NCBI GenBank assembly: GCA_963790205.1 | Contig: CAWBNQ010000003.1 | Location: 928,001 to 992,000, forward strand | From: Nitrospirota bacterium | GTDB taxonomy: Bacteria > Nitrospirota > UBA9217 | Direction of reading: 5' to 3' | DNA length: 64,000 nt | In this document: piece after piece, positions 3,116-28,202 of the stretch | Layout: each line of letters begins with the position of its first letter | Position numbering within the stretch: position 1 is the first letter of the stretch | Made by a program: the position numbers and the translations under genes | Notes under the pieces: generated by a model | What the model saw: the letters and a program-made list of their open reading frames with translations, nothing else | Databases searched by the model: none | Told to the model about the DNA's origin: nothing

Positions 3116-3159
3116 TATTACGGGAGTATTACGGGAATATTAAGTTTCTGTTACGGAAA
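3116..3159 (-). promoter_or_regulatory. Pho-box-like 4x11-bp direct repeat; -10 TATGAT at 3101-3106
   Basis: + strand tattacgggag tattacgggaa tattaagtttc tgttacggaaa, 9 nt from the -10. Confidence 0.85.
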
Positions 3160-14796: not shown

Positions 14797-15426
14797 CTAC
14801 CTTAAGACCGTAGGAACTTCCGCTATGATTGTTCCCAATACCGCGGCCTCTATCTTGCTCATCTCGCCCAAACTGCCGCGTCGTTCCGTCATACGCCGGA
14901 AGCGGGTGAAGTCTGTCGGCAGACCTTCGGTGTCCACAAGATAAGCAATTTTTTGGATGATCATCCTGATGTCTTCCGGATGTTTTATCCGGCCTTTTAT
15001 CTTGGGGAAATAGGTCACCTTCATCCGGCCCCTGGAGCTGTCGAAGTCGACATCCGTCACCCGGTGCAGCGCGAGAATAACATAATCCCCGAGTGATTGC
15101 CAAAAGATCTCGTCGTGGTCCTTCCAGGAGGGAAGGTGAAAGCGCAACAAGGCGGGCTGTTTTTTTCCATTTGGCATGATGCTCTTATAAAGAAAGACTG
15201 GAAAATCAGCTACCTCTTTAGTGTCGATCTTTTCGAGCTTTTCGAACAAATTGATCCTTTGCTGCTTTCGAAAGATCTTATCGATCTGATCTAAAACGCC
15301 GCCCTGCCCGAGACCGTCTTGAACTTTCTCGAGTACCGTTGTTAATGTGTTTGTCATTGTTCGACTCCTTTGACCGCAAGCTTTGAGTTTCGCTGCAGCG
15401 ATCTTAATTGCTGCGTCCCGATCCAA
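14797..15426 (-). CDS. Hypothetical protein (start uncertain)
   Basis: 209-aa ORF with natural composition; no motif recognised. Confidence 0.5.
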   Translation of the reverse strand: MDRDAAIKIAAAKLKACGQRSRTMTNTLTTVLEKVQDGLGQGGVLDQIDKIFRKQQRINLFEKLEKIDTKEVADFPVFLYKSIMPNGKKQPALLRFHLPSWKDHDEIFWQSLGDYVILALHRVTDVDFDSSRGRMKVTYFPKIKGRIKHPEDIRMIIQKIAYLVDTEGLPTDFTRFRRMTERRGSLGEMSKIEAAVLGTIIAEVPTVLR

Positions 15427-15513: not shown

Positions 15514-15814
15514 TCAACTGAGTCGGTTCAGCACCTTTTCCGCGGCCTGCTCTATAACTTCATCTGACGTTTTTGCCTTGGAGAGAATAAAATAACCCTT
15601 TTTCCCGAGGAAAGCGATGAGCTGTTCGTATTTGATTTTTTTTTCATCGAAATGAATCAATGCGCTGCCGATAACAGGGTTTGTTGCCACAGACGTTATT
15701 CCTTCCAAATCCTGGATGCTTATTTCAAAGATCGCCGCATTCCGCGGATTACTGTGGATAAAGGGCGTCTGGACGCCTCAGTCTGCCGGGCACATAATGA
15801 TAATAATAATCCAT
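15514..15814 (-). pseudogene. HMA_2 (CoBaHMA-type) domain protein with a 1-nt frameshift near 15775
   Basis: RBS GAGGAG; MDYYYHYVPGRLR, extra C, then VQTPF...NPVIGSALIHFD; paralog of 27456-27827. Confidence 0.75.
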
Positions 15815-15829
15815 ATTGCTCTCCTCAGG

Positions 15830-15965
15830 TCAAAAGTCCGGAGCATAAAAATAATACCCGATGCCGAGCGTAAACGCGAAATTGCCGTAAAGCGCGTGTT
15901 CGATCGAAACGGCCAGGAGCGATCTACTTCCCAGATAGGTCGTCGCCCAGAGGAGAGCGGCAACG
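15830..15965 (-). pseudogene. C-terminal remnant of a CPBP (CAAX protease-like) gene
   Basis: LLWATTYLGSRSLLAVSIEHALYGNFAFTLGIGYYFY resembles CPBP motif 4; no N-terminal part present. Confidence 0.5.
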
Positions 15966-18151: not shown

Positions 18152-18535
18152 ATGGGCTATCTGGAGGGCTTTAACTGGGACGCGATCAAGAAAGACCTGC
18201 AGCAGGGGCTGGAAAAAGGCATGGCGGCAGTGAAGCAAGGCGCCGTCGTGGTGCAGAAGAAAGCCGGGGAACTCACGGAAGAAGGAAAACGGCAGTACAA
18301 GGTATTAAGACTCAAAGCAAGGATCCACGAGGCGATTGCCGACCTCGGCGCAAAGACCTATGTGCTCATGAGCGGTGCCAAAGCCAAAAACCCCGCTCTC
18401 GATGCAGGGGTGAAGGAGATCATGGTCCGGATCCAGGACCTTGAAGCGCAGCTCGGGGTGCTCGAAGGCAAGAGCAGTGAGGGGCGCCCTAAAGCTCGCC
18501 CCAAGGCACGCACGAAAGCACATAAAAAGAAATGA
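18152..18535 (+). CDS. Hypothetical coiled-coil protein with basic tail
   Basis: RBS GGAGGT; helical amphipathic sequence. Confidence 0.7.
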   Translation: MGYLEGFNWDAIKKDLQQGLEKGMAAVKQGAVVVQKKAGELTEEGKRQYKVLRLKARIHEAIADLGAKTYVLMSGAKAKNPALDAGVKEIMVRIQDLEAQLGVLEGKSSEGRPKARPKARTKAHKKK

Positions 18536-18617: not shown

Positions 18618-18893
18618 TCATATTTTCGGAACTTTCGTGTACGTCCTGCAGTCAGGATATCCCGAGCACCTGAAACGCAAAATCGTCCCTTCATCCTTGT
18701 ATAGATGCATGATGCTGCCGCAGGCCGGGCATAACGGCCTCTTCTCGACTTTCGTGCGACGGCCCTCGGTAAACTGCTTCCCGCATAGCAAGCAGAGATA
18801 GCGTTGCTTACCTGTCCGTGCAAACCCGTCGCGATATACGTTACTCGACTCACACGCCGGGCACTGTACGTTATTGATCGTGTCTTTAGGCAT
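18618..18893 (-). CDS. Double zinc-ribbon protein (IS1 InsA-like ribbon plus topoisomerase-C4-like ribbon)
   Basis: CPAC..GKQRYLCLLC and CPACG..M..FRCSGYPDC. Confidence 0.75.
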   Translation of the reverse strand: MPKDTINNVQCPACESSNVYRDGFARTGKQRYLCLLCGKQFTEGRRTKVEKRPLCPACGSIMHLYKDEGTILRFRCSGYPDCRTYTKVPKI

Positions 18894-19123: not shown

Positions 19124-19336
19124 CTAGGAATTACTTCGTAATATTTTTGCCAGGAATATCGGACATTGATCGTAGTTCTCGGTGCGGCAATACGCGGCGT
19201 CTTGTCGCTTGCTGGGCGCCAATGTCATGACGGACGCCGAGCAATTCAAGCTATGCTCGCTCCTGTAGGGACAAAGTGAGGTGCAATCGCCCGGCGATGG
19301 AACTTTAGTTGCAGTCATTGAGCGAGAAATGTACAT
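19124..19336 (-). CDS. Small Cys-rich protein
   Basis: RBS GAGAGG; five Cys ending YC..ENYDQCPIFL; directly below a repeat box. Confidence 0.65.
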   Translation of the reverse strand: MYISRSMTATKVPSPGDCTSLCPYRSEHSLNCSASVMTLAPSKRQDAAYCRTENYDQCPIFLAKILRSNS

Positions 19337-19374
19337 AGTTACCTCTCAAAGTTGCATGAAGCATACTTGATGAA

Positions 19375-19418
19375 TGTTACGTGAGTATTACAATGAACGT
19401 TAAATTCCGTTTAAAAAA
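19375..19418 (-). promoter_or_regulatory. Pho-box-like repeat (2 clear plus 2 degenerate units); -10 TATGCT at 19360-19365
   Basis: tgttacgtgag tattacaatga acgttaaattc cgtttaaaaaa. Confidence 0.65.
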
Positions 19419-19446: not shown

Positions 19447-19475
19447 TAGACTTTGCATTAACACGCGACTACAAT
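19447..19475 (+). promoter_or_regulatory. Sigma70-like promoter of the DUF5132/HMA_2 cluster
   Basis: TAGACT-N17-TACAAT. Confidence 0.5.
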
Positions 19476-19501: not shown

Positions 19502-19810
19502 ATGGCACTTTTGGACAATGGATTGAAAGGAAATCTTGCTACCGGTCTGGCGATCGGCATCGGTGCCGCAATACTGGCACCCGTAGTCATTCCTCTGTTT
19601 GCCAATATCGCGAAGCCGTTGGCAAAAGCCGCAATCAAAGGAGGCATGCAGCTGTATGAACGCGGAAAGGAAACATTTGCAGAGGTCGCTGAAATTACGG
19701 AAGATATTGTGGCTGAAGCAAAAGCGGAATTAGCTGAGTCGACAGCGGCAGCGGCGGCAGTTGCGGCAGCACCGGCTGCAGACTCCGAAGGCGGGTCAGT
19801 CACGTCATGA
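19502..19810 (+). CDS. DUF5132-like protein
   Basis: GLAIGIGAAILAP..KPLAKAAIKGG..YE....AE..EDIVAEAKAE; RBS AAGGAGG. Confidence 0.75.
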   Translation: MALLDNGLKGNLATGLAIGIGAAILAPVVIPLFANIAKPLAKAAIKGGMQLYERGKETFAEVAEITEDIVAEAKAELAESTAAAAAVAAAPAADSEGGSVTS

Positions 19811-20292
19811 TCCCGCCCGCTGTCATTGCCCATGCTTCAGCCGGGAGATTACGGATCCGGATCTCCTCACAAAAAGGGAACCTTGCAGCACTTAAGTCCG
19901 GGGGAGATCAGCTTGCCGCGTGTCCGGGGATTCTCTCCATTGAGGTGAACCCGGGTACGGGGAGCATACTTGTACTTCACCAAACGACGGTGCAAGTGAT
20001 TGCGGAGTATGCGCGGTCCAGGAGCCTTTTTTCGTTGGAGGACCAAAGGATATCAAGGGTGCCGTCTGCGGAGCTTCGCCGGGACCTTGGCGGTACGTTC
20101 AAGAGCATTGATCGGCAGATACAGAACCTCACGGGTGGAGATTTGGACCTAGGCGGGTTTGCAGTCGGAGCCTTGGTTATAGCGGGTAGTTTGCAAATCT
20201 TGTCAGGGACTGCAGGCCCAATACCGTGGTCAGCAGCGTACTGGTACGCATACAATCTCTACTCAAAAACAAAGGATGGGGAGAAAAAATGA
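19807..20292 (+). CDS. HMA_2 (CoBaHMA-type) domain protein with C-terminal TM region
   Basis: IAHASAGRLRIR, VNPGTGSILV, DL....GAL..G..Q......PW...WYA. Confidence 0.78.
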   Translation: MIPPAVIAHASAGRLRIRISSQKGNLAALKSGGDQLAACPGILSIEVNPGTGSILVLHQTTVQVIAEYARSRSLFSLEDQRISRVPSAELRRDLGGTFKSIDRQIQNLTGGDLDLGGFAVGALVIAGSLQILSGTAGPIPWSAAYWYAYNLYSKTKDGEKK

Positions 20293-20582
20293 CATAAGCA
20301 GCACCGAGGGAAGTAGGAACCCTTCCAGTCCGTGTCCGCCTTGTCAGCAACAAAAGTTTCTCGTTATAGAAAAAATCTGAATTTCTGAAAAACCCGTTTC
20401 CAGCATTATCACAACAAAAAAGTACGATAACGCTTTTGGGAACCTTGACAGGAGTAATGCTTATGAGCGACCGCAAACAAAAGGCACCGACGAAGAAGAC
20501 CGTGAAGCGCAGCTCGCGCGACTCGTCGTCGGAATCGGATCTGAAAATCACAACTACGAGGACTACAAAAGGAGGAGCAGAC

Positions 20583-21191
20583 ATGACAAACGCAGAAACC
20601 ATAGGTGGGGAAACGTCAGCCCAAGACATCGGCAAAGCAGGATCTGCCGTGAAAGAGGGCGTCGTGAGCAGTCTCAAAGGGATCAACGAGATCGAAGCGG
20701 AGATCGTCAGCCTCGTCAGGAACACCGTATCCAACACGCTTCGCGCAACAGGCTCAGTGGCCGATGAAGCAGTCGGCATCACGAAGGATGTGGTCAAGGG
20801 AGCCATTCAGGCCACGGAAGAGGTCGGCACCGGCCTCATTTTGAGCACCAAGAGCGTGGCAAAAGGGGTGGTCATGGGCGTGAGCGATGTTGGCGGCGAC
20901 ATTATTTCCGTGGCAGGCCAGACCGTCAAGGGCGCAGTCAAGGGTGCGGCCGAGGTCGGCGCGGATGTCGCCATGGTTGCCCGGCGGGCCGTGGACGGCG
21001 TGATCGAGGCCACCAAGGAAGTCGGGGGGAATGCCGAAGAGGTGGCGAAAGTCGCCGTCACTGGCGCAATTGAGGCGGCATCTGTAATCGGCAACACGGC
21101 GGTCAAGGCGGTCAAGGACATGCTGGTTGGAGTTGTTGAAGGAGTCAAAGAGGTCGCGAGCAGCGCGTTGCCGAAGACGAAAACGACTTAA
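20583..21191 (+). CDS. Gly/Ala/Val-rich 22-residue amphipathic repeat protein
   Basis: Start MTNAET after GGAGG; repeats such as TKDVVKGAIQATEEVGTGLILS / TKSVAKGVVMGVSDVGGDIISV. Confidence 0.8.
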   Translation: MTNAETIGGETSAQDIGKAGSAVKEGVVSSLKGINEIEAEIVSLVRNTVSNTLRATGSVADEAVGITKDVVKGAIQATEEVGTGLILSTKSVAKGVVMGVSDVGGDIISVAGQTVKGAVKGAAEVGADVAMVARRAVDGVIEATKEVGGNAEEVAKVAVTGAIEAASVIGNTAVKAVKDMLVGVVEGVKEVASSALPKTKTT

Positions 21192-21246
21192 TCCGTCATC
21201 GCCTGGCTTGTGACCAGCTTCCATTTCAGAAGGGGAGGTATCGTAC

Positions 21247-24200
21247 GTGGTCCAGGCCGTTCATACGTCGGTAAAAGGACGGGCCCGTTATAAGGTAGAG
21301 GGTCTGTACCGCTCGGAGCAGTTGAAACAGCAGATCGAGCAGAATCTTGCGCAGCACAAGTGGATCCTGAGCGTTTCGATCAATACCCTCACGGGAAGCG
21401 TTCTCGTGCTGTTCGATTCGCAGAACGGCAACCATGCATCGGCTGTAGCCTCCCTGCTGAATGCCGCGGTGGAACGTACCAACGGCGGGCCGGTCCAAGG
21501 AAAGGGAGACCCTTTCCCTTCTGTGTCGCAGGGGGAAGGAACGGTTATGGTACGCACCGTGCGCACCGTCGCCTCTCCTCTCCCCACTCCCGCTGGCAAG
21601 GAAGTGCCGAGCCTCCGGACCGTTCGCAAGCAAGTTTCCCGTGCCGATGACCAGCAGGGAGAAGCATGGCATTGCATGTCAAAGGGAGATGTGCTTCAGA
21701 GATGGGGTACGTCAGCGTCCAACGGTTTATCCGAAGAAGCAGCCCGCCTCTTGTTCATTCAGTATGGTCCCAACCTTCTGCCTGAGTCCGTTCCCCGCTC
21801 CGGCTGGAGCATGTTCTTCGATCAGTTCAAGTCCCTTCCCGTAGCCCTCCTCGGCGTTGCGGCCGGCATTTCCGTTGCTACCGGCGGATTTGCGGATGCC
21901 GTCGTGATCATGGGGGTCGTCGTCACCAACGCCTCAATAGGATATTATACCGAGAGCCAGTCGGAAAAGATCATCCACGGATTGAAGAGCCTCGTGCAGC
22001 CGACCTCAACCGTGATCCGCGACGGGGTCATGACGACCATCGATGCCAAGGTGGTCGTGCCCGGAGATCTAATCGTGCTGAGACCGGGAAGCTATGTCGC
22101 GGCGGACGCCCGTCTCATCGAGGCAAAATATCTGAGCATCGATGAATCGGCGCTCACCGGCGAGAGCATGCCGGCGATGAAAACCACCGATGAACTGCAG
22201 GTACCGGACATCCTCCTTGCCGACCGCACTAACATGGTCTATATGGGCACCCTGGTCACCGGGGGACAGGGCCTCGCCGTCGCGGTGGCGACAGGACGCT
22301 TTACCGAGGTCGGAAAGATCCAGACCATGGTGGGAGAGGCGCGGCCGCCCGAGACGCCCCTGGAACGGCAGATGGACCACCTGGGGGTCCAGTTGGTTTA
22401 TATCACCTGCGCCGTATGCGGCATCGTGTTCATCGTAGGCATCCTCCGCGGTTATGGTTTTCTCCAGATGCTGAAGACCTCCATTGCCCTTGCCGTAGCC
22501 GCCGTGCCCGAGGGGCTTCCGACCGTTACGACGACGACCCTCGCGCTCGGCATCAAGCGCATGCGCGGTCTGAACGTGCTCATCCGCCACCTTGACGCGG
22601 TCGAAACGCTCGGGTCGGTCGAAACCATCTGTCTTGACAAGACCGGCACGATCACTATGAACAAGATGTCGGTGGTCCAGATGCATGCCGGCATGCGCCG
22701 TCTCGATGTTGTCGATGGCAGGATCTTGGCGGAAGGAAAAAATATAAACCCCTATACGAGCGAGGACGTCCTCCGTCTGCTCCATTTGTCCGTGCTCTGT
22801 AATGAATCGATGGTATCGGGACAGGAAGGCGACTACGTTGTGGAAGGGTCATCAACGGAAAACGCCCTGGTGAACCTCGCGCTCACCGCCGGCGTGGATG
22901 TCAATTCGCTTCGCGCGCAGCACCCCATCGTGAAGATGAACCACCGATCGGAAGACCGGCATTATATGAACACCGTACACCGCTCGAACGACCAACAGCG
23001 GCTAATGGCTCTCAAGGGGAGTCCTTCCGATGTGCTGTCACTCTGCAAATGGTACGTCAACGACGGCCGGCAACTGGAGCTTGACGACGATGCCCGCGCG
23101 GTCTTCTACGCAGAAAATGAACGGATGGCCGGTGAAGCGCTCCGCGTGCTGGCCATGGCGTACGCCGTGACCAACGGGGACACCCTGCACAGCGACGGGA
23201 TCATTCAGCAGGGACTCGTCTGGGTCGGCCTCGTCGGCATGGCGGATGTGGTCAGGAGCGGCGTCAAGAATCTCATCAACACGTTCCACCGGGCCGGGAT
23301 CGATACCGTTATGATCACCGGTGACCAGAGCCCCACTGCCTATGCGATCGGCAAGGAGCTCAATCTGAGCAAGGGCGAGGAACTGGAGATCCTGGACTCC
23401 GCCAACCTTAGCCGGCTTGAGCCCGAGGTCATGAAGGCGCTTGCCGGGCGTGTCCATGTCTTCGCCCGCGTGAGCCCGGCCAACAAGCTCCAGATCGTCC
23501 AGGCGCTCCAGTCCGCAGGAAAGGTCATCGGTATGACCGGCGACGGCATCAACGATGGACCGGCGCTCAAAGCTGCCGATATCGGGATCGCCCTGGGACA
23601 CACGGGGACCGACGTGGCGCGGGAGGTAGCGGACGTGGTCCTGGAAGACGACAACCTCGAGACCATGATCGTGGCCATCAGTCAGGGGCGGACGATCTAC
23701 AATAATTTACGAAAATCGGTCCGCTACATGCTTTCGAAGAACACGAGCGAGATCATGATCATGTTCACGGCTCTTGCCGCCGGCATGGGGCAGCCGTTCA
23801 ACGTCATGCAGCTTCTCTGGATCAACATGATCTCGGACATCTTCCCGGGCCTTGCCCTTGCCCAGGAACCGCCCGAGCCGGATGTGCTCCTGCGGCCTCC
23901 CCGCGACCCCGAGGAACCGCTCATCAAGACCGCGGACTTTAAAAGGCTCCTCTTCGAGGCTTCCACTATCTCGGCGGGGACGCTGGCGGCGTACGGCTAC
24001 GGCGTTCTGCGCTACGGGCAGGGGCCCCAGGCCAGCACCATGGCTTTCACGAACTTTGTTACAGCAGGACTCCTGCATGCCATCAGCCATCGTTCCGAGA
24101 CCCACAGCATCTTTGACGCTGACCGGCTCGCACCGAACAACTATCTCACCGTGGCTCTGGCAGGCTCGTTGGGGTTGCAATCTCTTACCCTGGTCGTCCC

Positions 24201-24393
24201 GGGCCTCCGGAGCTTCCTGGGAATGAGCCCGCTGAACCCCTTCGACCTGGCAGTTTCGATCGGGACCGCTGTCGCTCCTTTGCTCATCAACGAGGCGACA
24301 AAAAAGATTGCTGCTCCGCCGTTGGTGCTGAATGGCAGTTCATCGGCCCCGATTTCGATATTGAACGGTAATCACGTTGCTGCAGTCACTTGA
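21247..24393 (+). CDS. P2A-type (Ca/Mn) P-type ATPase with N-terminal HMA_2-like domain
   Basis: VHTSVKGRARYK; TGES, VPEGL, DKTGT, TGD, GDGIND, N..E (TM5), INMISD (TM6). Confidence 0.93.
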   Translation: MVQAVHTSVKGRARYKVEGLYRSEQLKQQIEQNLAQHKWILSVSINTLTGSVLVLFDSQNGNHASAVASLLNAAVERTNGGPVQGKGDPFPSVSQGEGTVMVRTVRTVASPLPTPAGKEVPSLRTVRKQVSRADDQQGEAWHCMSKGDVLQRWGTSASNGLSEEAARLLFIQYGPNLLPESVPRSGWSMFFDQFKSLPVALLGVAAGISVATGGFADAVVIMGVVVTNASIGYYTESQSEKIIHGLKSLVQPTSTVIRDGVMTTIDAKVVVPGDLIVLRPGSYVAADARLIEAKYLSIDESALTGESMPAMKTTDELQVPDILLADRTNMVYMGTLVTGGQGLAVAVATGRFTEVGKIQTMVGEARPPETPLERQMDHLGVQLVYITCAVCGIVFIVGILRGYGFLQMLKTSIALAVAAVPEGLPTVTTTTLALGIKRMRGLNVLIRHLDAVETLGSVETICLDKTGTITMNKMSVVQMHAGMRRLDVVDGRILAEGKNINPYTSEDVLRLLHLSVLCNESMVSGQEGDYVVEGSSTENALVNLALTAGVDVNSLRAQHPIVKMNHRSEDRHYMNTVHRSNDQQRLMALKGSPSDVLSLCKWYVNDGRQLELDDDARAVFYAENERMAGEALRVLAMAYAVTNGDTLHSDGIIQQGLVWVGLVGMADVVRSGVKNLINTFHRAGIDTVMITGDQSPTAYAIGKELNLSKGEELEILDSANLSRLEPEVMKALAGRVHVFARVSPANKLQIVQALQSAGKVIGMTGDGINDGPALKAADIGIALGHTGTDVAREVADVVLEDDNLETMIVAISQGRTIYNNLRKSVRYMLSKNTSEIMIMFTALAAGMGQPFNVMQLLWINMISDIFPGLALAQEPPEPDVLLRPPRDPEEPLIKTADFKRLLFEASTISAGTLAAYGYGVLRYGQGPQASTMAFTNFVTAGLLHAISHRSETHSIFDADRLAPNNYLTVALAGSLGLQSLTLVVPGLRSFLGMSPLNPFDLAVSIGTAVAPLLINEATKKIAAPPLVLNGSSSAPISILNGNHVAAVT

Positions 24394-24420
24394 ACAGACA
24401 CCGTGCATGGAGAAGATTAA

Positions 24421-25620
24421 ATGAAAAAAGACTTCATGTTCACCTCGGAATCGGTGACCGAAGGCCATCCTGACAAGCTCTGCGATATCATCAGCGATGC
24501 CATCGTCGATCATGTCCTGCAGAAGGACCCGTATGCGAATATCATAGCCGAGTGCGCCGTTTCCACTGCCATTGTCTTCATCGCAGCGCGGTTCGCGACC
24601 TCGGCCAGGGTCGATTATGCCAATGTCGCCCGGCAGGTCATCAGCCAGGTCGACTATGAGGAGCGGGCCTTTAATGCAAAGACCTGCAGCGTCATAACCA
24701 GCCTCACCGAGGTACCGTTGGACGGCCGTCCGCTGGTTGATGAACGGACCCTGAGCGAGGAGGAGATCGAACGCATTCCCGTGCGGAACCTGGTGACGGT
24801 GTTCGGGTTCGCCTGCGATCAGACCGCGGCCTTTATGCCGCTTCCCGTCTGGCTCGCCCACCGTCTTGCAAGGAAACTCGTGGCCGTGCGGCTCCAGAAA
24901 ACGCTCGATTATCTTGCGCCCGACGGCAAGACCCAGGTCGGCATAGAATATTGTGACGGCAGACCGTCGCGTGTTCACAGCATCACCATTATTGCAAGCC
25001 AGAAGCGGACCGCAGCCAAAGGCGGGCCCGATGCCCAACGGCTCCAGGCCGATATCCGGGAGACAGTGCTGAACCCTGTTTTTCAGGACGAGGAGATCAA
25101 ACCGGATGCGCACACCCGGATCTTCGTCAATCCCGACGGACCTTTCATCGGCGGCGGTCCTGCCGTACACTCAGGGTTGACCGGGAGAAAGAACGCAATC
25201 GATACTTACGGCGAATACTCCCGCCATAGCGGGGCAGCCCTGAGCGGGAAAGATCCTTCGAGGATAGACCGGATCGGCGCCTATGCTGCCCGGTATGCTG
25301 CAAAGAATATCATCGCAGCCGGACTTGCAACCTCCTGCGAGGTGCAGCTCAGCTATTCCATTGGATTTTCGCGGCCGGTGAGCATCCAGATAGAGACCTT
25401 CGGGACCGGCAAAGTATCTGATGAAAGAATTGCCGATATCATAGAAAATAATTTCGACTTTCGGCCGGCCGGTATCATACGCCATTTCAACCTTCGATGT
25501 CTCCCTTCTCAGATCAAAGGCGGTTTTTATCGCAAACTAGCGGCGTACGGTCATGTCGGAAGAATGGACATCGGCTTGCCCTGGGAATTGACAGACAAGG
25601 CGCATCTCCTGAAAGGGTGA
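24421..25620 (+). CDS. metK: Divergent S-adenosylmethionine synthetase paralog
   Basis: FTSESVTEGHPDK, DGKTQ, GLTGRK, SGKDP, YGH..PWE; GAGDQG signature absent. Confidence 0.85.
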   Translation: MKKDFMFTSESVTEGHPDKLCDIISDAIVDHVLQKDPYANIIAECAVSTAIVFIAARFATSARVDYANVARQVISQVDYEERAFNAKTCSVITSLTEVPLDGRPLVDERTLSEEEIERIPVRNLVTVFGFACDQTAAFMPLPVWLAHRLARKLVAVRLQKTLDYLAPDGKTQVGIEYCDGRPSRVHSITIIASQKRTAAKGGPDAQRLQADIRETVLNPVFQDEEIKPDAHTRIFVNPDGPFIGGGPAVHSGLTGRKNAIDTYGEYSRHSGAALSGKDPSRIDRIGAYAARYAAKNIIAAGLATSCEVQLSYSIGFSRPVSIQIETFGTGKVSDERIADIIENNFDFRPAGIIRHFNLRCLPSQIKGGFYRKLAAYGHVGRMDIGLPWELTDKAHLLKG

Positions 25621-25647
25621 GAAAGGCAACGGAAGGGTCGGCGAACC

Positions 25648-26556
25648 ATGCATGAGACAGAGGAAAAGCACGTAAAAGGCCAGACGCTCGTTCTTGTTGT
25701 AACAATAGCCTATTTTTTCGTTGAATTGATCGGGGGGTTCTATTATCACAGCATCGCCCTCGTGACTGATGCGTCGTTCATGGCCGTCAATATCTCGGGG
25801 CAGGTCATCGCACTATGGGTGACCAGGCTTGCCCGCAGACAGCCGGACAAGGTCAATACCTTCGGGTACGAGCGCGCGAAAGTGCTGTCTGGCCTGTTCA
25901 ACGGGGTCCTGGTCGGCTTCATCCTGTTCTATGTTTTCACGGAAGCTTTCCAGAAGATTCTGCACCCTCAGCCCATTGAAGCGGATAAGGTTCTGGTGAT
26001 AGCCGTCCTGGGCCTCGCTGCGAACGCCTTCGGTCTCGTACAACTGTACCGGTACGCAAAGGACGTGAACATCAGAGGGGCGCTGCTCCTGCTCCTGAAT
26101 GATACCCTGGGTTCGGTCGGTGTCATTGGTTCTGCCATCATCATACGTTATACCCATCTTTATTTTGTGGACCCGCTTGCCGGCATCCTGATCGGCTGCC
26201 TTGCCGCGTATCCGACTTATTTTTTGATCAGGGACAGCATAAAGATCCTGATGGAGGGGACTCCTGCCAGAATCGATGTCGATGACGTCGCAGGATTTCT
26301 GCATCAATCGTTCCCCCAAATACATCTTGTCAAGGATATGCATATCTGGGGTCTTTCACCGGAGAAGGTTATCCTCGTGGCAAGAATCAGGACGAATGGA
26401 GCGGGATATGACCGGGATACCATAAAACTGATGAAGAACATGCTGCGGGAAAAATTCGGCTTATTTGACATTTACCTAGAGGGATACGAAACGCGGCAAC
26501 ACGAAGCAGCAACGGTGGCGCACGATGTGCTCACACCGAACTATCAAAAGGACTGA
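25648..26556 (+). CDS. Cation diffusion facilitator (CzcD-like), atypical metal site
   Basis: VE..GG...SIAL.TDA, TFGYERA, DP, LMEGTP, DMHIW. Confidence 0.88.
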   Translation: MHETEEKHVKGQTLVLVVTIAYFFVELIGGFYYHSIALVTDASFMAVNISGQVIALWVTRLARRQPDKVNTFGYERAKVLSGLFNGVLVGFILFYVFTEAFQKILHPQPIEADKVLVIAVLGLAANAFGLVQLYRYAKDVNIRGALLLLLNDTLGSVGVIGSAIIIRYTHLYFVDPLAGILIGCLAAYPTYFLIRDSIKILMEGTPARIDVDDVAGFLHQSFPQIHLVKDMHIWGLSPEKVILVARIRTNGAGYDRDTIKLMKNMLREKFGLFDIYLEGYETRQHEAATVAHDVLTPNYQKD

Positions 26557-26612
26557 AGTCAATTATAGTCCTATTTGAGAGAAGCCCCGGATTAGGAAGG
26601 GGGGAGCTAAAA

Positions 26613-26873
26613 ATGAACAAACGCACTCTGCAGGACATTGAGACGGGACCACGTCATCACGAGGTCGCGGTCGAAAACCTTGCGCAAAGCCTGAACCGGC
26701 CAAAAGAGCGTATAACGACCCTTTACCAGATAGTGTTGAGACACTATTCACGGACGGCACGGATCAAATTCTTTCTCTCTGCCCTCGTTTCGAAGCGGGT
26801 CAAAGACCTGCTGCGGGATAATACAACGACGGCTGATATAGAAAGCCGGAGGGGCCATTCGCGGGAGTTGTGA
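26613..26873 (+). CDS. DUF3562-like small helical protein
   Basis: VENLA......I..LY.......ARIK.FL..LV.KRVKD; RBS GGGGAG. Confidence 0.6.
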   Translation: MNKRTLQDIETGPRHHEVAVENLAQSLNRPKERITTLYQIVLRHYSRTARIKFFLSALVSKRVKDLLRDNTTTADIESRRGHSREL

Positions 26874-26946
26874 ACAGAATTGCTTCCTGTTGCGGTTCTA
26901 TTATTTGAGATTATATCGGGGTTTGCAGATCCACAAGGAGAAGCCA

Positions 26947-27249
26947 ATGCAGGGATGCGGTACGCGCGAGTACAGGAATATCAGTAAAACGAGGATCGAT
27001 AAACTGCTTACTGAGGCAGTCTCGCAGGGGGCCGTTATAACGGGATCTAACCCATGGGACATCGAAACGCGTCTGCACGGAATAGTATTACGAGGAAGGT
27101 GGGATGAGACCGAAAAGACCTTGGCAATCAGCGTAGTAGATGTTAAGTGGTATGTACCGTGCGAGACCGTATGGAGCAATATCGACGTCATGCTGCATGA
27201 TTTCATCGAGCAAAAGAAGAATATGGAAGGCGTAATGGATTTTGGATGA
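26947..27249 (+). CDS. Hypothetical protein
   Basis: MQGCGTREY... after RBS AAGGAG. Confidence 0.65.
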   Translation: MQGCGTREYRNISKTRIDKLLTEAVSQGAVITGSNPWDIETRLHGIVLRGRWDETEKTLAISVVDVKWYVPCETVWSNIDVMLHDFIEQKKNMEGVMDFG

Positions 27250-27455
27250 CCGACGATTGGTCCCGGCGAATCAAAATTTACTCAAAAGGGAAACAAAATT
27301 CAGACGCGATGGCCTAAAAAATGAACCGGCCACTTGGGGATTCCTCTAAGGCACTAGGAAACATGAAGAATGATGAAATCAACTCGATAAAAGAGAACGG
27401 AGCAGCGCAGATTTGACGCATGCAGGAAAAGAGGATAGACGGAGGGGACGTTGTA

Positions 27456-27827
27456 TTAAAGCAATAACGTCAGAAATGACAAGCCCGTACCTGAAAGGGC
27501 AGTGTCAATGAAAGCTCCTGATACCGCTTTGGCTACCACGTTGAATGCCGTAGTCGTCGCCTGATGAATCACTTGATCGTTGGTGACTGTTTTGTCGGGA
27601 TGATAAAAACCTCCCCTCGCAAGGGCGCTCAGGATGTCCTGATGATGAATCTCTGCCGGGTTGTAATGGATCAGAAGGCTGCCCGTCGTCGTGTTGAATT
27701 CGGCGGTTCCGATACCATGACCCATATCAACGAGGGCCTTTCGAACCTCATAGTGGACCGGGCTGTTTTTGAACAAGGGATTTTTTATCCGCAGTCTTCC
27801 CGGCACATTATGAACATAGCTTTTCAT
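27456..27827 (-). CDS. HMA_2 (CoBaHMA-type) domain protein
   Basis: YVHNVPGRLRIK, NTTTGSLLIHY; RBS AAGGAGG. Confidence 0.8.
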   Translation of the reverse strand: MKSYVHNVPGRLRIKNPLFKNSPVHYEVRKALVDMGHGIGTAEFNTTTGSLLIHYNPAEIHHQDILSALARGGFYHPDKTVTNDQVIHQATTTAFNVVAKAVSGAFIDTALSGTGLSFLTLLL

Positions 27828-28116
27828 GAGATGAAACCTCCTTCTTGAACGGGATTTTTACATACGATTTACAGTCAGGATATTCCGAGCACCTGAATCG
27901 TAACCCTATTTTTTCATGCATGTAAAGGTGCATCTTGAGGCCGCAGATGGGACAGGTTGGACGATTCCTCAATTCATGCCTCGTAAAGCCGAGAACAAAC
28001 TGTCTTCCGCACAAAACGCATCTGAGGCGCTGCTTTCCAGTTTTCACATGACCGTATTTATAAACTGCTTCAGAAGCGCACACCGGACACTTGAGATTGC
28101 GTATTTTCTCCGTCAT
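27808..28116 (-). CDS. Double zinc-ribbon protein, paralog of 18618-18893
   Basis: MTEKIR after GAGGA; CPVC..GKQRLRCVLC and CPICG..MHLY..FRCSEYPDC. Confidence 0.78.
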   Translation of the reverse strand: MTEKIRNLKCPVCASEAVYKYGHVKTGKQRLRCVLCGRQFVLGFTRHELRNRPTCPICGLKMHLYMHEKIGLRFRCSEYPDCKSYVKIPFKKEVSSHEKLCS

Positions 28117-28158
28117 TATCAAGTTCCTCAATTCTTTCTCAGAATGATAGAGGAGCCA

Positions 28159-28202
28159 CATGACATATATGTTACGGAAATATTACATTTCGGTTAAATG
28201 TT
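28159..28202 (-). promoter_or_regulatory. Pho-box-like 4x11-bp repeat; -10 TATCAT at 28144-28149
   Basis: catgacatata tgttacggaaa tattacatttc ggttaaatgtt. Confidence 0.75.

Follow-up and report, generated by a model that had tools for sequence, protein, structure and literature searches.

A conserved operon with a Ca2+-type pump, ferrosome-related helpers and a rewired MetK in Nitrospirota: a possible calcium store

The loading of calcium into the internal mineral compartments of bacteria is poorly understood: no function has been assigned to the established marker gene, and several groups that mineralise calcium lack it. A stretch of 64,000 nucleotides from a Nitrospirota bacterium (assembly GCA_963790205.1, contig CAWBNQ010000003.1, positions 928,001 to 992,000; hereafter the window), part of contig C3 of a 4.34-Mb genome, carries an operon that bears on this question. 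It encodes together a pump, a scaffold whose relatives have a proven part in organelles, and an enzyme that is a candidate for phosphate handling. An earlier note, made from the letters of the window, had read the locus as a ferrosome- and calcyanin-like gene set that could build a metal-phosphate compartment tied to phosphate status. Does the operon build and fill such a compartment, or do its products export calcium from the cell? Its genes, with one convergent neighbour, are as follows (window positions).

19502 to 19810, plus strand: DUF5132 protein of 102 aa, a single hydrophobic GxxxG helix followed by a helix rich in Ala and Glu; distantly related to FezA-type scaffolds and, by features, to PacL-type ones
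19807 to 20292, plus strand: HMA_2 (CoBaHMA) domain and C-terminal hydrophobic helix, 161 aa, FezC-like layout
20436 to 21191, plus strand: repeat protein with a 22-residue period, probably starting at 20463 or 20583; predicted to be a soluble alpha-helical solenoid
21247 to 24393, plus strand: P2A-type (Ca2+-type) P-ATPase, 1048 aa, with an N-terminal cysteine-free HMA_2 domain
24421 to 25620, plus strand: MetK-like protein, 399 aa; ATP/triphosphate residues retained, methionine-binding residues swapped (R57, V98, H250, R281)
25648 to 26556, plus strand: CDF-family transporter with altered site A, accessory
26613 to 26873, plus strand: DUF3562 small protein, accessory
26890 to 27249, plus strand: small protein without a family, likely start 26947, accessory
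27456 to 27827, minus strand: stand-alone HMA_2 (CoBaHMA) protein, 123 aa, convergent

The positions and families of the open reading frames (ORFs) named in the earlier note (DUF5132, three HMA_2, a P2-type ATPase, MetK, CDF and DUF3562) were confirmed by an ORF check and family profiles, with three window proteins above the Pfam cut-off for HMA_2 (PF19991). The start of the 19807 HMA_2 gene overlaps the DUF5132 stop. The CDF transporter is atypical, as had been noticed: its site A reads DASFMAVN and LNDTLGS, without the two histidines typical of that site.

Gene neighbourhood across phyla

The operon contains a real gene set that is kept together across several bacterial phyla. Starting from the pump, the same neighbours were found around relatives titled Nitrospirota (the closest ones), Desulfobacterota groups, a planctomycete, a Polyangiaceae and an Oligoflexaceae, and around one pump locus on a plasmid (Microvirga). 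Plasmid searches returned no DUF5132 match, and no rewired MetK among the 30 matches listed, which were not read residue by residue. In the operon's own phylum, DUF5132 is found in 61 of 401 sampled Nitrospirota genomes (~15%). Forty loci were fetched from 37 of these 61 genomes: 26 have the P2A type of module, 25 of them with a MetK-like gene; in 10 the module is of a second type, which has a P1B pump, and one genome has neither type. In a second phylum, that of a Desulfotignum record, a DUF5132 match besides the seed occurs in 27 of 300 sampled genomes (9%), all of which were fetched; 25 of the 27 encode an HMA_2-P2A pump within 7 kb, and 23 of those 25 also have a MetK-like gene. The remaining two comprise a genome with the helpers and no pump in the stretches fetched, and the weakest match, below the cut-off, which lies in a true ferrosome (fez) cluster. 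Part of the module is also present in cultured cyanobacteria.

Counts were made over 74 pump loci, which include one duplicate and come from related genomes, so that kin are not independent. The small HMA_2 gene is present in 72, the MetK-like gene in 64, the repeat gene in 50 and DUF5132 in 71, a figure that is partly built in because two of the three sets were chosen via DUF5132. Other neighbours are a zinc ribbon (31), DUF3562 (22), CDF (11), a Ca-exchanger-family gene (9), the 26890 protein (9), ParA (8) and genes of the polyhydroxyalkanoate (PHA)-granule region (3). The core therefore consists of DUF5132, HMA_2, pump and MetK-like genes, often with the repeat gene; the CDF and small genes are local extras. 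Joint conservation of the gene set, on which the earlier proposal depended, is strong for the core (25 of 27 and 26 of 37 genomes) and is not seen for the CDF gene and the two small genes. One locus, L021, has two divergent copies of the repeat gene and a pump without an adjacent DUF5132 or HMA-membrane gene.

Pump, MetK-like and repeat proteins

The C-terminal part of the pump finds its best solved matches in SPCA1, SERCA and a Listeria Ca-ATPase, and the protein shares PEGL, DKTGT, the Asn/Glu pair of transmembrane helix (TM) 5 and the Asn/Asp pair of TM6 with P2A Ca2+-ATPases (SERCA, SPCA1, Listeria LMCA1). In SERCA numbering, equivalents of E309, D351, N768, E771, N796 and D800 (the Glu of TM4, the phosphorylated Asp, the Asn and Glu of TM5, and the Asn and Asp of TM6) are present in 50 of 50 homologues, and that of Thr799 is mostly Ser. 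The equivalent of Glu908 in TM8 is Gln in 36, Gly in 12, Glu in one and a gap in one of the 50, leaving the SERCA two-site set incomplete; a family-specific His stands three residues past this position in 49 of 50. The corresponding residues of the window pump are E422, D464, N832, E835, N860, S863 and D864, with G941 where SERCA has Glu. Unlike the known P2A Ca2+-ATPases, the pump carries an N-terminal CoBaHMA domain, has Gln or Gly for the TM8 Glu and scores under all curated subfamily cut-offs. The HMA_2 domain has the motif H..GRxR in 47 of 50 pumps and CxxC in none, and its H6, R12 and R14 are invariant in 64 such domains.

Judged from these ligands, Ca2+ is the likeliest ion, and transport would run out of the cytosol, with a lumen and the cell exterior fitting equally well as destination. 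That the pump instead handles Mn2+, Mg2+ or Fe2+, for export or for storage, is improbable. This alternative draws on the match to SPCA1, a Ca/Mn pump that is the best solved match, on the departure of TM8 from SERCA with its family-specific His, on the CDF or MntP gene that follows in some loci and on the FezH-like P1B pumps that adjoin the operon in four loci. It fits poorly with the TM5 Asn and Glu, which are SERCA-like and not SPCA1-like, and with recurring transporter neighbours that are Ca exchangers.

The MetK-like protein has all three Pfam domains of bacterial MetK, scores 370.7 bits against TIGR01034 (cut-off 309.4) and is 42% identical to the housekeeping MetK on contig C8. Like E. 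coli MetK (1RG9), it keeps His14, Asp163 and Phe230. Equivalents of His14, Asp16, Asp163, Lys165, Arg244, Lys245, Lys265 and Asp271, which have triphosphate and metal roles, are retained in at least 140 of 142 family sequences. In contrast, four other residues are swapped family-wide: Glu55 is Arg in 138 of 142, Gln98 is a non-Gln and mostly hydrophobic residue, and Asp238 and Lys269 are His and Arg in 142 of 142; GDQG becomes [RK]NQV. Among 116 further matches, three of which also belong to the set of 142, the Arg, His and Arg are each found in 116 of 116. Glu55, Gln98, Asp238 and Lys269 are described as the methionine-binding residues of the E. coli methionine adenosyltransferase (MAT), and Asp238 as present even in archaeal enzymes (PMC3853416, PMC1282579). 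The earlier description of this MetK as atypical was thus well founded, as all four methionine-binding residues are replaced beside retained ATP/triphosphate residues. With its formerly acidic pocket now basic and the adjacent triphosphate site intact, the protein may have an anionic partner and release phosphate.

These rewired proteins form a separate clade and are nearly always a spare copy, placed behind the P2A pump. In a quick tree, 25 rewired sequences fall on one side of a branch from 26 ordinary ones (SH-aLRT 100). A second MetK-family match, classed as ordinary by its higher score, is present in 46 of 48 carrier genomes; of the other two, one has an archaeal type and one neither. Thirteen of the 48 also encode an archaeal-type S-adenosylmethionine (SAM) synthetase (for example L014 19457-20728), and some therefore have three MAT-fold genes. 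Eighty metagenome MetK loci divide into 14 with His238, 63 with Asp238 and three unassigned. Nine of the 14 His238 loci lie beside module genes, four are on short contigs and one is followed by what looks by eye like a pump ORF; module neighbours occur at 0 of the 63 Asp238 loci.

The repeat protein had been called a Gly-zipper protein with a 22-mer repeat. The 22-residue period stands out clearly (z = 10.8 relative to 300 shuffles); the glycine zipper did not hold up, as the protein has only three GxxxG, no central GP, no transmembrane stretch and a maximum hydropathy of 1.25. The GlyZips of calcyanin are described as extended apolar series of Gly-X3 with GP at the centre (PMC8890360). A genome-wide scan for (GlyZip)3, which used a pattern and not the profile of the calcyanin authors, returned only one poly-Gly stretch, and the calcyanin-like component proposed for the locus is accordingly abandoned. 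From 73 homologues, the protein is predicted to fold as a compact helical repeat (pLDDT 91.7, pTM 0.85); a first prediction from 14 sequences was poor (pLDDT 43). A perilipin-like lipid-coating helix, considered on account of a 98-degree hydrophobic moment, was dropped in favour of the confident solenoid of the 73-sequence model. In fold searches with this model, the top matches were all designed repeat proteins (best Z 16.5, root-mean-square deviation 2.8, 162 aligned), and the best natural one had a Z of 7.6; there is no clear natural match among solved structures, and the fold matches indicate no function.

Calcium store or export patch

Ferrosomes provide the nearest organelle precedent. 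Their fez clusters combine the P1B-6 ATPase FezB with GxxxG and Arg-rich helpers and are reported to build Fe-P organelles (Grant & Komeili, 10.1101/2020.01.10.902569), for which the mineral chemistry is described in 10.64898/2026.06.16.732667. A profile of 57 module DUF5132 proteins scores 21.8 bits on a GxxxG protein beside a true FezB (DYSCA, HNATT), compared with 6.7 for the best of 1000 shuffles, and the module HMA_2 profile matches the N-termini of the same FezB (locus L151) and of two neighbours. The kinship to ferrosome helpers suggested earlier is upheld by both profiles. The module and ferrosomes have in common a P-type ATPase with an Arg-rich/HMA_2 N-terminus, small GxxxG membrane proteins, HMA-plus-membrane and stand-alone HMA proteins, and a distribution mainly in anaerobe-rich phyla. 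They differ in that the pump here is P2A with Ca-type ligands and not P1B-6; the FezB motifs D[Y/F]SCA and HNxxT were found in no pump ORF of the genome. The module further has a rewired MetK and a helical solenoid, and no FeoA or ferritin-like genes were seen.

The L151 locus (genome G158) is a large canonical fez cluster with a FeoA-like gene (labelled by eye), FezB, several GxxxG proteins, an HMA protein and a second P1B pump. FezH-like P1B pumps with a motif like MxCPCATVLAAS, as in that second pump, adjoin the P2A operon at L034 (6024-8300), L126, L141 and L144. Other Nitrospirota families encode a sister module with two or three DUF5132 genes and a P1B ATPase with an HMA_2 N-terminus, whose membrane motif is DYGTGIRIA, not the DYSCA of FezB (L239, L240, L243, L244, L246, L248, L249, L250, L258, L270, L271). 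Of these 11 loci, 8 have a Ca exchanger, confirmed as cax in one of them, and 5 have ParA; the P1B pump of the sister module may serve calcium.

A similar chassis works in the plasma membrane. PacL (DUF1490) of mycobacteria is described as having a conserved glycine groove and AE repeats and as forming plasma-membrane patches with P-ATPases for efflux (PMC13043812). DUF5132 resembles it as a small single-helix scaffold encoded beside a P-ATPase, with a glycine groove and an Ala/Glu-rich helix; GxxxG is present in 41 of 57 DUF5132 proteins, and some Ala and Glu positions are invariant. By protein-language-model features, the nearest other families of DUF5132 are DUF6110 (0.89) and DUF1490/PacL (0.88), which at below 0.9 count as leads. 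An Arg-rich N-terminal motif is reported as common to FezB and the PacL partner CtpC (Grant & Komeili, 10.1101/2020.01.10.902569). In an effluxosome-like platform of this kind, DUF5132 would be a PacL-type chaperone that both stabilises the HMA_2-fused pump and clusters it in the cytoplasmic membrane, Ca2+ would be expelled, no organelle would form, and the MetK-like and repeat proteins would be regulatory subunits. The neighbouring CDF, MntP and Ca-exchanger genes, usually exporters, also agree with a platform. Such a plain calcium-export patch in the cell membrane is almost as likely as a calcium store. It leaves unexplained the rewired MetK behind the pump in 64 of 74 loci, the three cysteine-free HMA_2 copies, and the ParA and Rho_N-fused DUF5132 neighbours, and other P2 pumps in the genome could export Ca. 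The module also departs from the described PacL/Ctp systems, in which a DUF1490 protein serves P1B heavy-metal pumps: DUF5132 is the sole Pfam match of its protein and accompanies a P2A pump, there are extra CoBaHMA proteins, a solenoid and a MetK-like gene, and a C-terminal His metal motif is not evident. A complex prediction for the pump HMA_2 domain with the DUF5132 soluble helix scored 0.22, under the mark of 0.32.

The third comparison is with ccyA, whose neighbourhoods contain like parts. HMA_2 is equated with CoBaHMA, and Microcystis ccyA is reported to be flanked by two DUF5132 genes, two CoBaHMA genes and cax (Bruley et al., 10.1101/2024.07.07.602159). The three window HMA_2 proteins carry the CoBaHMA signature (PF19991, a His before strand 1, basic residues, no CxxC). 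In Cyanothece 7425, ccyA adjoins P-type ATPases, cax and an anion-transporting ATPase (PMC13642857); nearby ATPases of both kinds are also seen at L043. The module thus shares with the described ccyA loci (Microcystis aeruginosa PCC 7806, Cyanothece PCC 7425) the pairing of DUF5132 and HMA_2/CoBaHMA genes with Ca transporters. It differs in having no calcyanin and no (GlyZip)3 domain, in a main transporter that is a CoBaHMA-fused P2A pump, and in a MetK-like gene, which the portions of the published ccyA accounts drawn on here do not mention. These shared parts raise the alternative that the module, without calcyanin, supplies a compartment of calcium carbonate inside the cell, the role supposed for the ccyA neighbourhood. 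Intracellular amorphous calcium carbonate (iACC) is reported in ccyA-lacking bacteria (PMC11773610) and in magnetotactic Nitrospirota, and the rewired MetK is found in the iACC formers Fischerella sp. NIES-4106 and Chlorogloeopsis fritschii PCC 9212. A simple link is opposed by magnetotactic iACC formers described as lacking both ccyA and P-type Ca pumps (PMC11773610), and a role as carbonate feeder is considered improbable. By their defining features, the module belongs to none of fez, calcyanin and PacL, yet it appears to work like the fez/PacL chassis.

The favoured explanation, held tentatively, is a ferrosome-like store: the operon would build and fill a small membrane-bound calcium store, probably of calcium phosphate. 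The GxxxG helices of DUF5132 would associate with one another and draw the pump together, in the way that PacL gathers CtpC, and its acidic helix or anionic lipids would meet the basic HMA_2 faces. The pump would then move Ca2+ from the cytosol into a lumen, not to the outside. The MetK-like protein would still bind ATP or triphosphate, its cationic pocket (Arg, His, Arg) taking an anion instead of methionine, and would release pyrophosphate and phosphate next to the pump, or regulate the pump; the helical solenoid would be a soluble scaffold. The sequences themselves show which parts are present and that they are conserved together, as well as the set of Ca2+-type ligands, the homology to fez helpers and the rewiring of the MetK pocket; the compartment itself would follow from these genes by inference.

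Several observations argue for a store. A calcium context is supported by Na/Ca-exchanger-family genes in 9 of 74 pump loci and by the exchangers of the sister module (8 of 11), and an organelle precedent by the match of the DUF5132 and HMA_2 profiles to helpers of Fe-P organelle clusters. The ccyA neighbourhoods of Microcystis and Cyanothece 7425, with their like parts, count in favour, and so do the several other P2-type pumps without these helpers that the genome already holds. The ParA genes (8 of 74), Rho_N-fused DUF5132 proteins beside ParA (3) and PHA-granule-region genes (3) would fit an object that needs placement. At L029 (4981-5586), L039 (2675-3283) and L043 (15208-15696), membrane proteins that resemble DUF5132 and weakly match Rho_N at the C-terminus are encoded beside a ParA gene, which comes after the MetK-like gene; such fusions could tether a membrane body to DNA. 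Elsewhere (L043 4879-6990, L030, L136, L175, L192), an ArsA ATPase with an HSP20-like domain and PHA-granule-region proteins adjoin the module, and the window's 26890 protein has no detectable relation to the latter.

Cultured cyanobacteria supply a further lead. Rewired MetK sequences carry names from Chlorogloeopsis, Fischerella, Calothrix, Hapalosiphon and Nostoc. In C. fritschii, the rewired MetK WP_016879532.1 is listed directly behind a 1064-aa cation-transporting P-type ATPase, and a second locus, known by annotation only, has DUF5132, a 1008-aa ATPase and a 394-aa metK, both on contigs other than that of ccyA (PMC8890360, supplement rows). Strain PCC 9212 is reported to contain many Ca-rich polyphosphate inclusions, and PCC 6912 and Fischerella NIES-3754 Ca/P-rich inclusions (PMC8890360). 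The idea is therefore testable in C. fritschii, a cultured organism with both Ca/P-rich inclusions and the pump–MetK-like pair.

A number of points weigh against a store. The compartment has not been imaged in any carrier. Chassis alone does not imply an organelle, because the same scaffold type, as in PacL, clusters P-ATPases in the mycobacterial plasma membrane for efflux. Ion and stoichiometry are not fixed, because the SERCA E908 equivalent is so rarely Glu. Ca-rich polyphosphate is common in cyanobacteria, so that C. fritschii is a lead only and not proof. The core is without a phosphate transporter or polyphosphate kinase, and 10 of 74 pump loci showed no MetK-like gene. Archaeal MATs are described as holding the methionine carboxyl through other residues (PMC3853416, PMC1282579), so the substitutions alone do not prove lost methionine binding. 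Deletion of cax3-cax4 at the Cyanothece ccyA locus is reported to have left its inclusions (iACC) unchanged (PMC13642857). The ParA, granule-region and exchanger neighbours are minority features among related genomes. Finally, a sense-oriented Pho-type box scoring at least 15 lies upstream of DUF5132 in only 5 of 24 related loci; phosphate control of the core operon is not general.

A bolder version, which we consider unlikely, has the module build a mineral organelle of a third type among those that bacteria enclose in lipid: a body of calcium phosphate on the ferrosome DUF5132/CoBaHMA chassis, loaded by a SERCA-like pump, placed by ParA in some lineages and supplied with phosphate by a MetK descendant. 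If this were true, the MetK descendant would be an ATP- or triphosphate-splitting enzyme, and the chassis a general, pump-swappable organelle kit common to ferrosomes, the ccyA locus and effluxosomes. Even if the module were an export platform only, it would extend PacL-type scaffolds to P2 pumps and expose a large MetK clade with the database label of SAM synthetase whose methionine-binding residues are replaced. In the portions consulted of the literature on DUF5132, CoBaHMA, ferrosomes, calcyanin, PacL, iACC and MetK paralogues, no description of the operon or of the rewired MetK was found; the CoBaHMA family paper (Gaschignard 2024) may list CoBaHMA-P2 pump fusions.

Phosphate boxes and surroundings

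The operon lies in phosphate-starvation surroundings, with pstSCAB ~6 kb before the window and genes for a purple acid phosphatase, a PHP protein and PsiE nearby; a PhoB/PhoR-like pair in the same region scores just below the cut-off. An 11-bp direct-repeat box, shared with pstS and found upstream of pstSCAB, has seven exact two-half-site matches in the window against 0.01 expected, and the three-half-site pattern has 11 matches at six places against 0.02 expected. The features at the operon's borders are listed below.

18618 to 18893, minus strand: second zinc-ribbon paralogue, divergent from the operon; 53% identical to the 27808 zinc-ribbon protein
19124 to 19336, minus strand: short ORF with cysteines, immediately downstream of the left box; matches no family
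19367 to 19394: promoter-like site of the operon, overlapping the left box
19375 to 19403, plus strand: left Pho-type box, TGTTAC / TATTAC / CGTTAA, with half-sites spaced by 11 and 12; reads in the sense of the divergent minus-strand gene
19447 to 19475, plus strand: second sigma-70-like promoter match upstream of the operon, TAGACT-17-TACAAT, a consensus match only
27808 to 28161, minus strand: double zinc-ribbon protein, upstream of the 27456 HMA_2 gene
28170 to 28197, plus strand: right Pho-type box with all three half-sites; reads in the sense of the zinc-ribbon and HMA_2 pair

The third half-site of the left box stands at 12 bp, so the three-half-site pattern missed it. The earlier note had placed the genes between Pho-type boxes. 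The two boxes are real and flanking; both are oriented, in the manner of the pstS box, for minus-strand genes, as are all boxes of this region, and they therefore face away from the core operon. A pstS-shared box in the transcribed sense, the mark of a Pho regulon, is thus found here for the zinc-ribbon and HMA_2 pair and not for the core operon. Repression of the core operon by the left box is possible, because that box overlaps the promoter-like site.

The pstS box occurs in the window at 3116, 4826, 9808, 12800, 28170 and 30214, forming a compact Pho-type regulon; the genes behind it are, in order, those for a PHP protein, a porin-like protein, a protein of no assigned function, a pentapeptide-repeat protein with the purple acid phosphatase, the zinc-ribbon protein and psiE. 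The 13 top genome-wide box scores all fall within this 37-kb stretch. In one soil RNA run, 5% of words matched; its contigs were mostly <90% alike and thus came from relatives, so no claim on expression of the operon is made. A frameshifted extra HMA_2 gene lies at window 15514-15830 (minus strand), followed by a gene for a 190-210 aa protein of no assigned function (14797-15426, minus strand); members of this protein's family turn up close to the cluster at 6 of 74 pump loci. A 127-aa helical protein with no assigned function (window 18152-18535, plus strand) is also encoded near the cluster in several close relatives.

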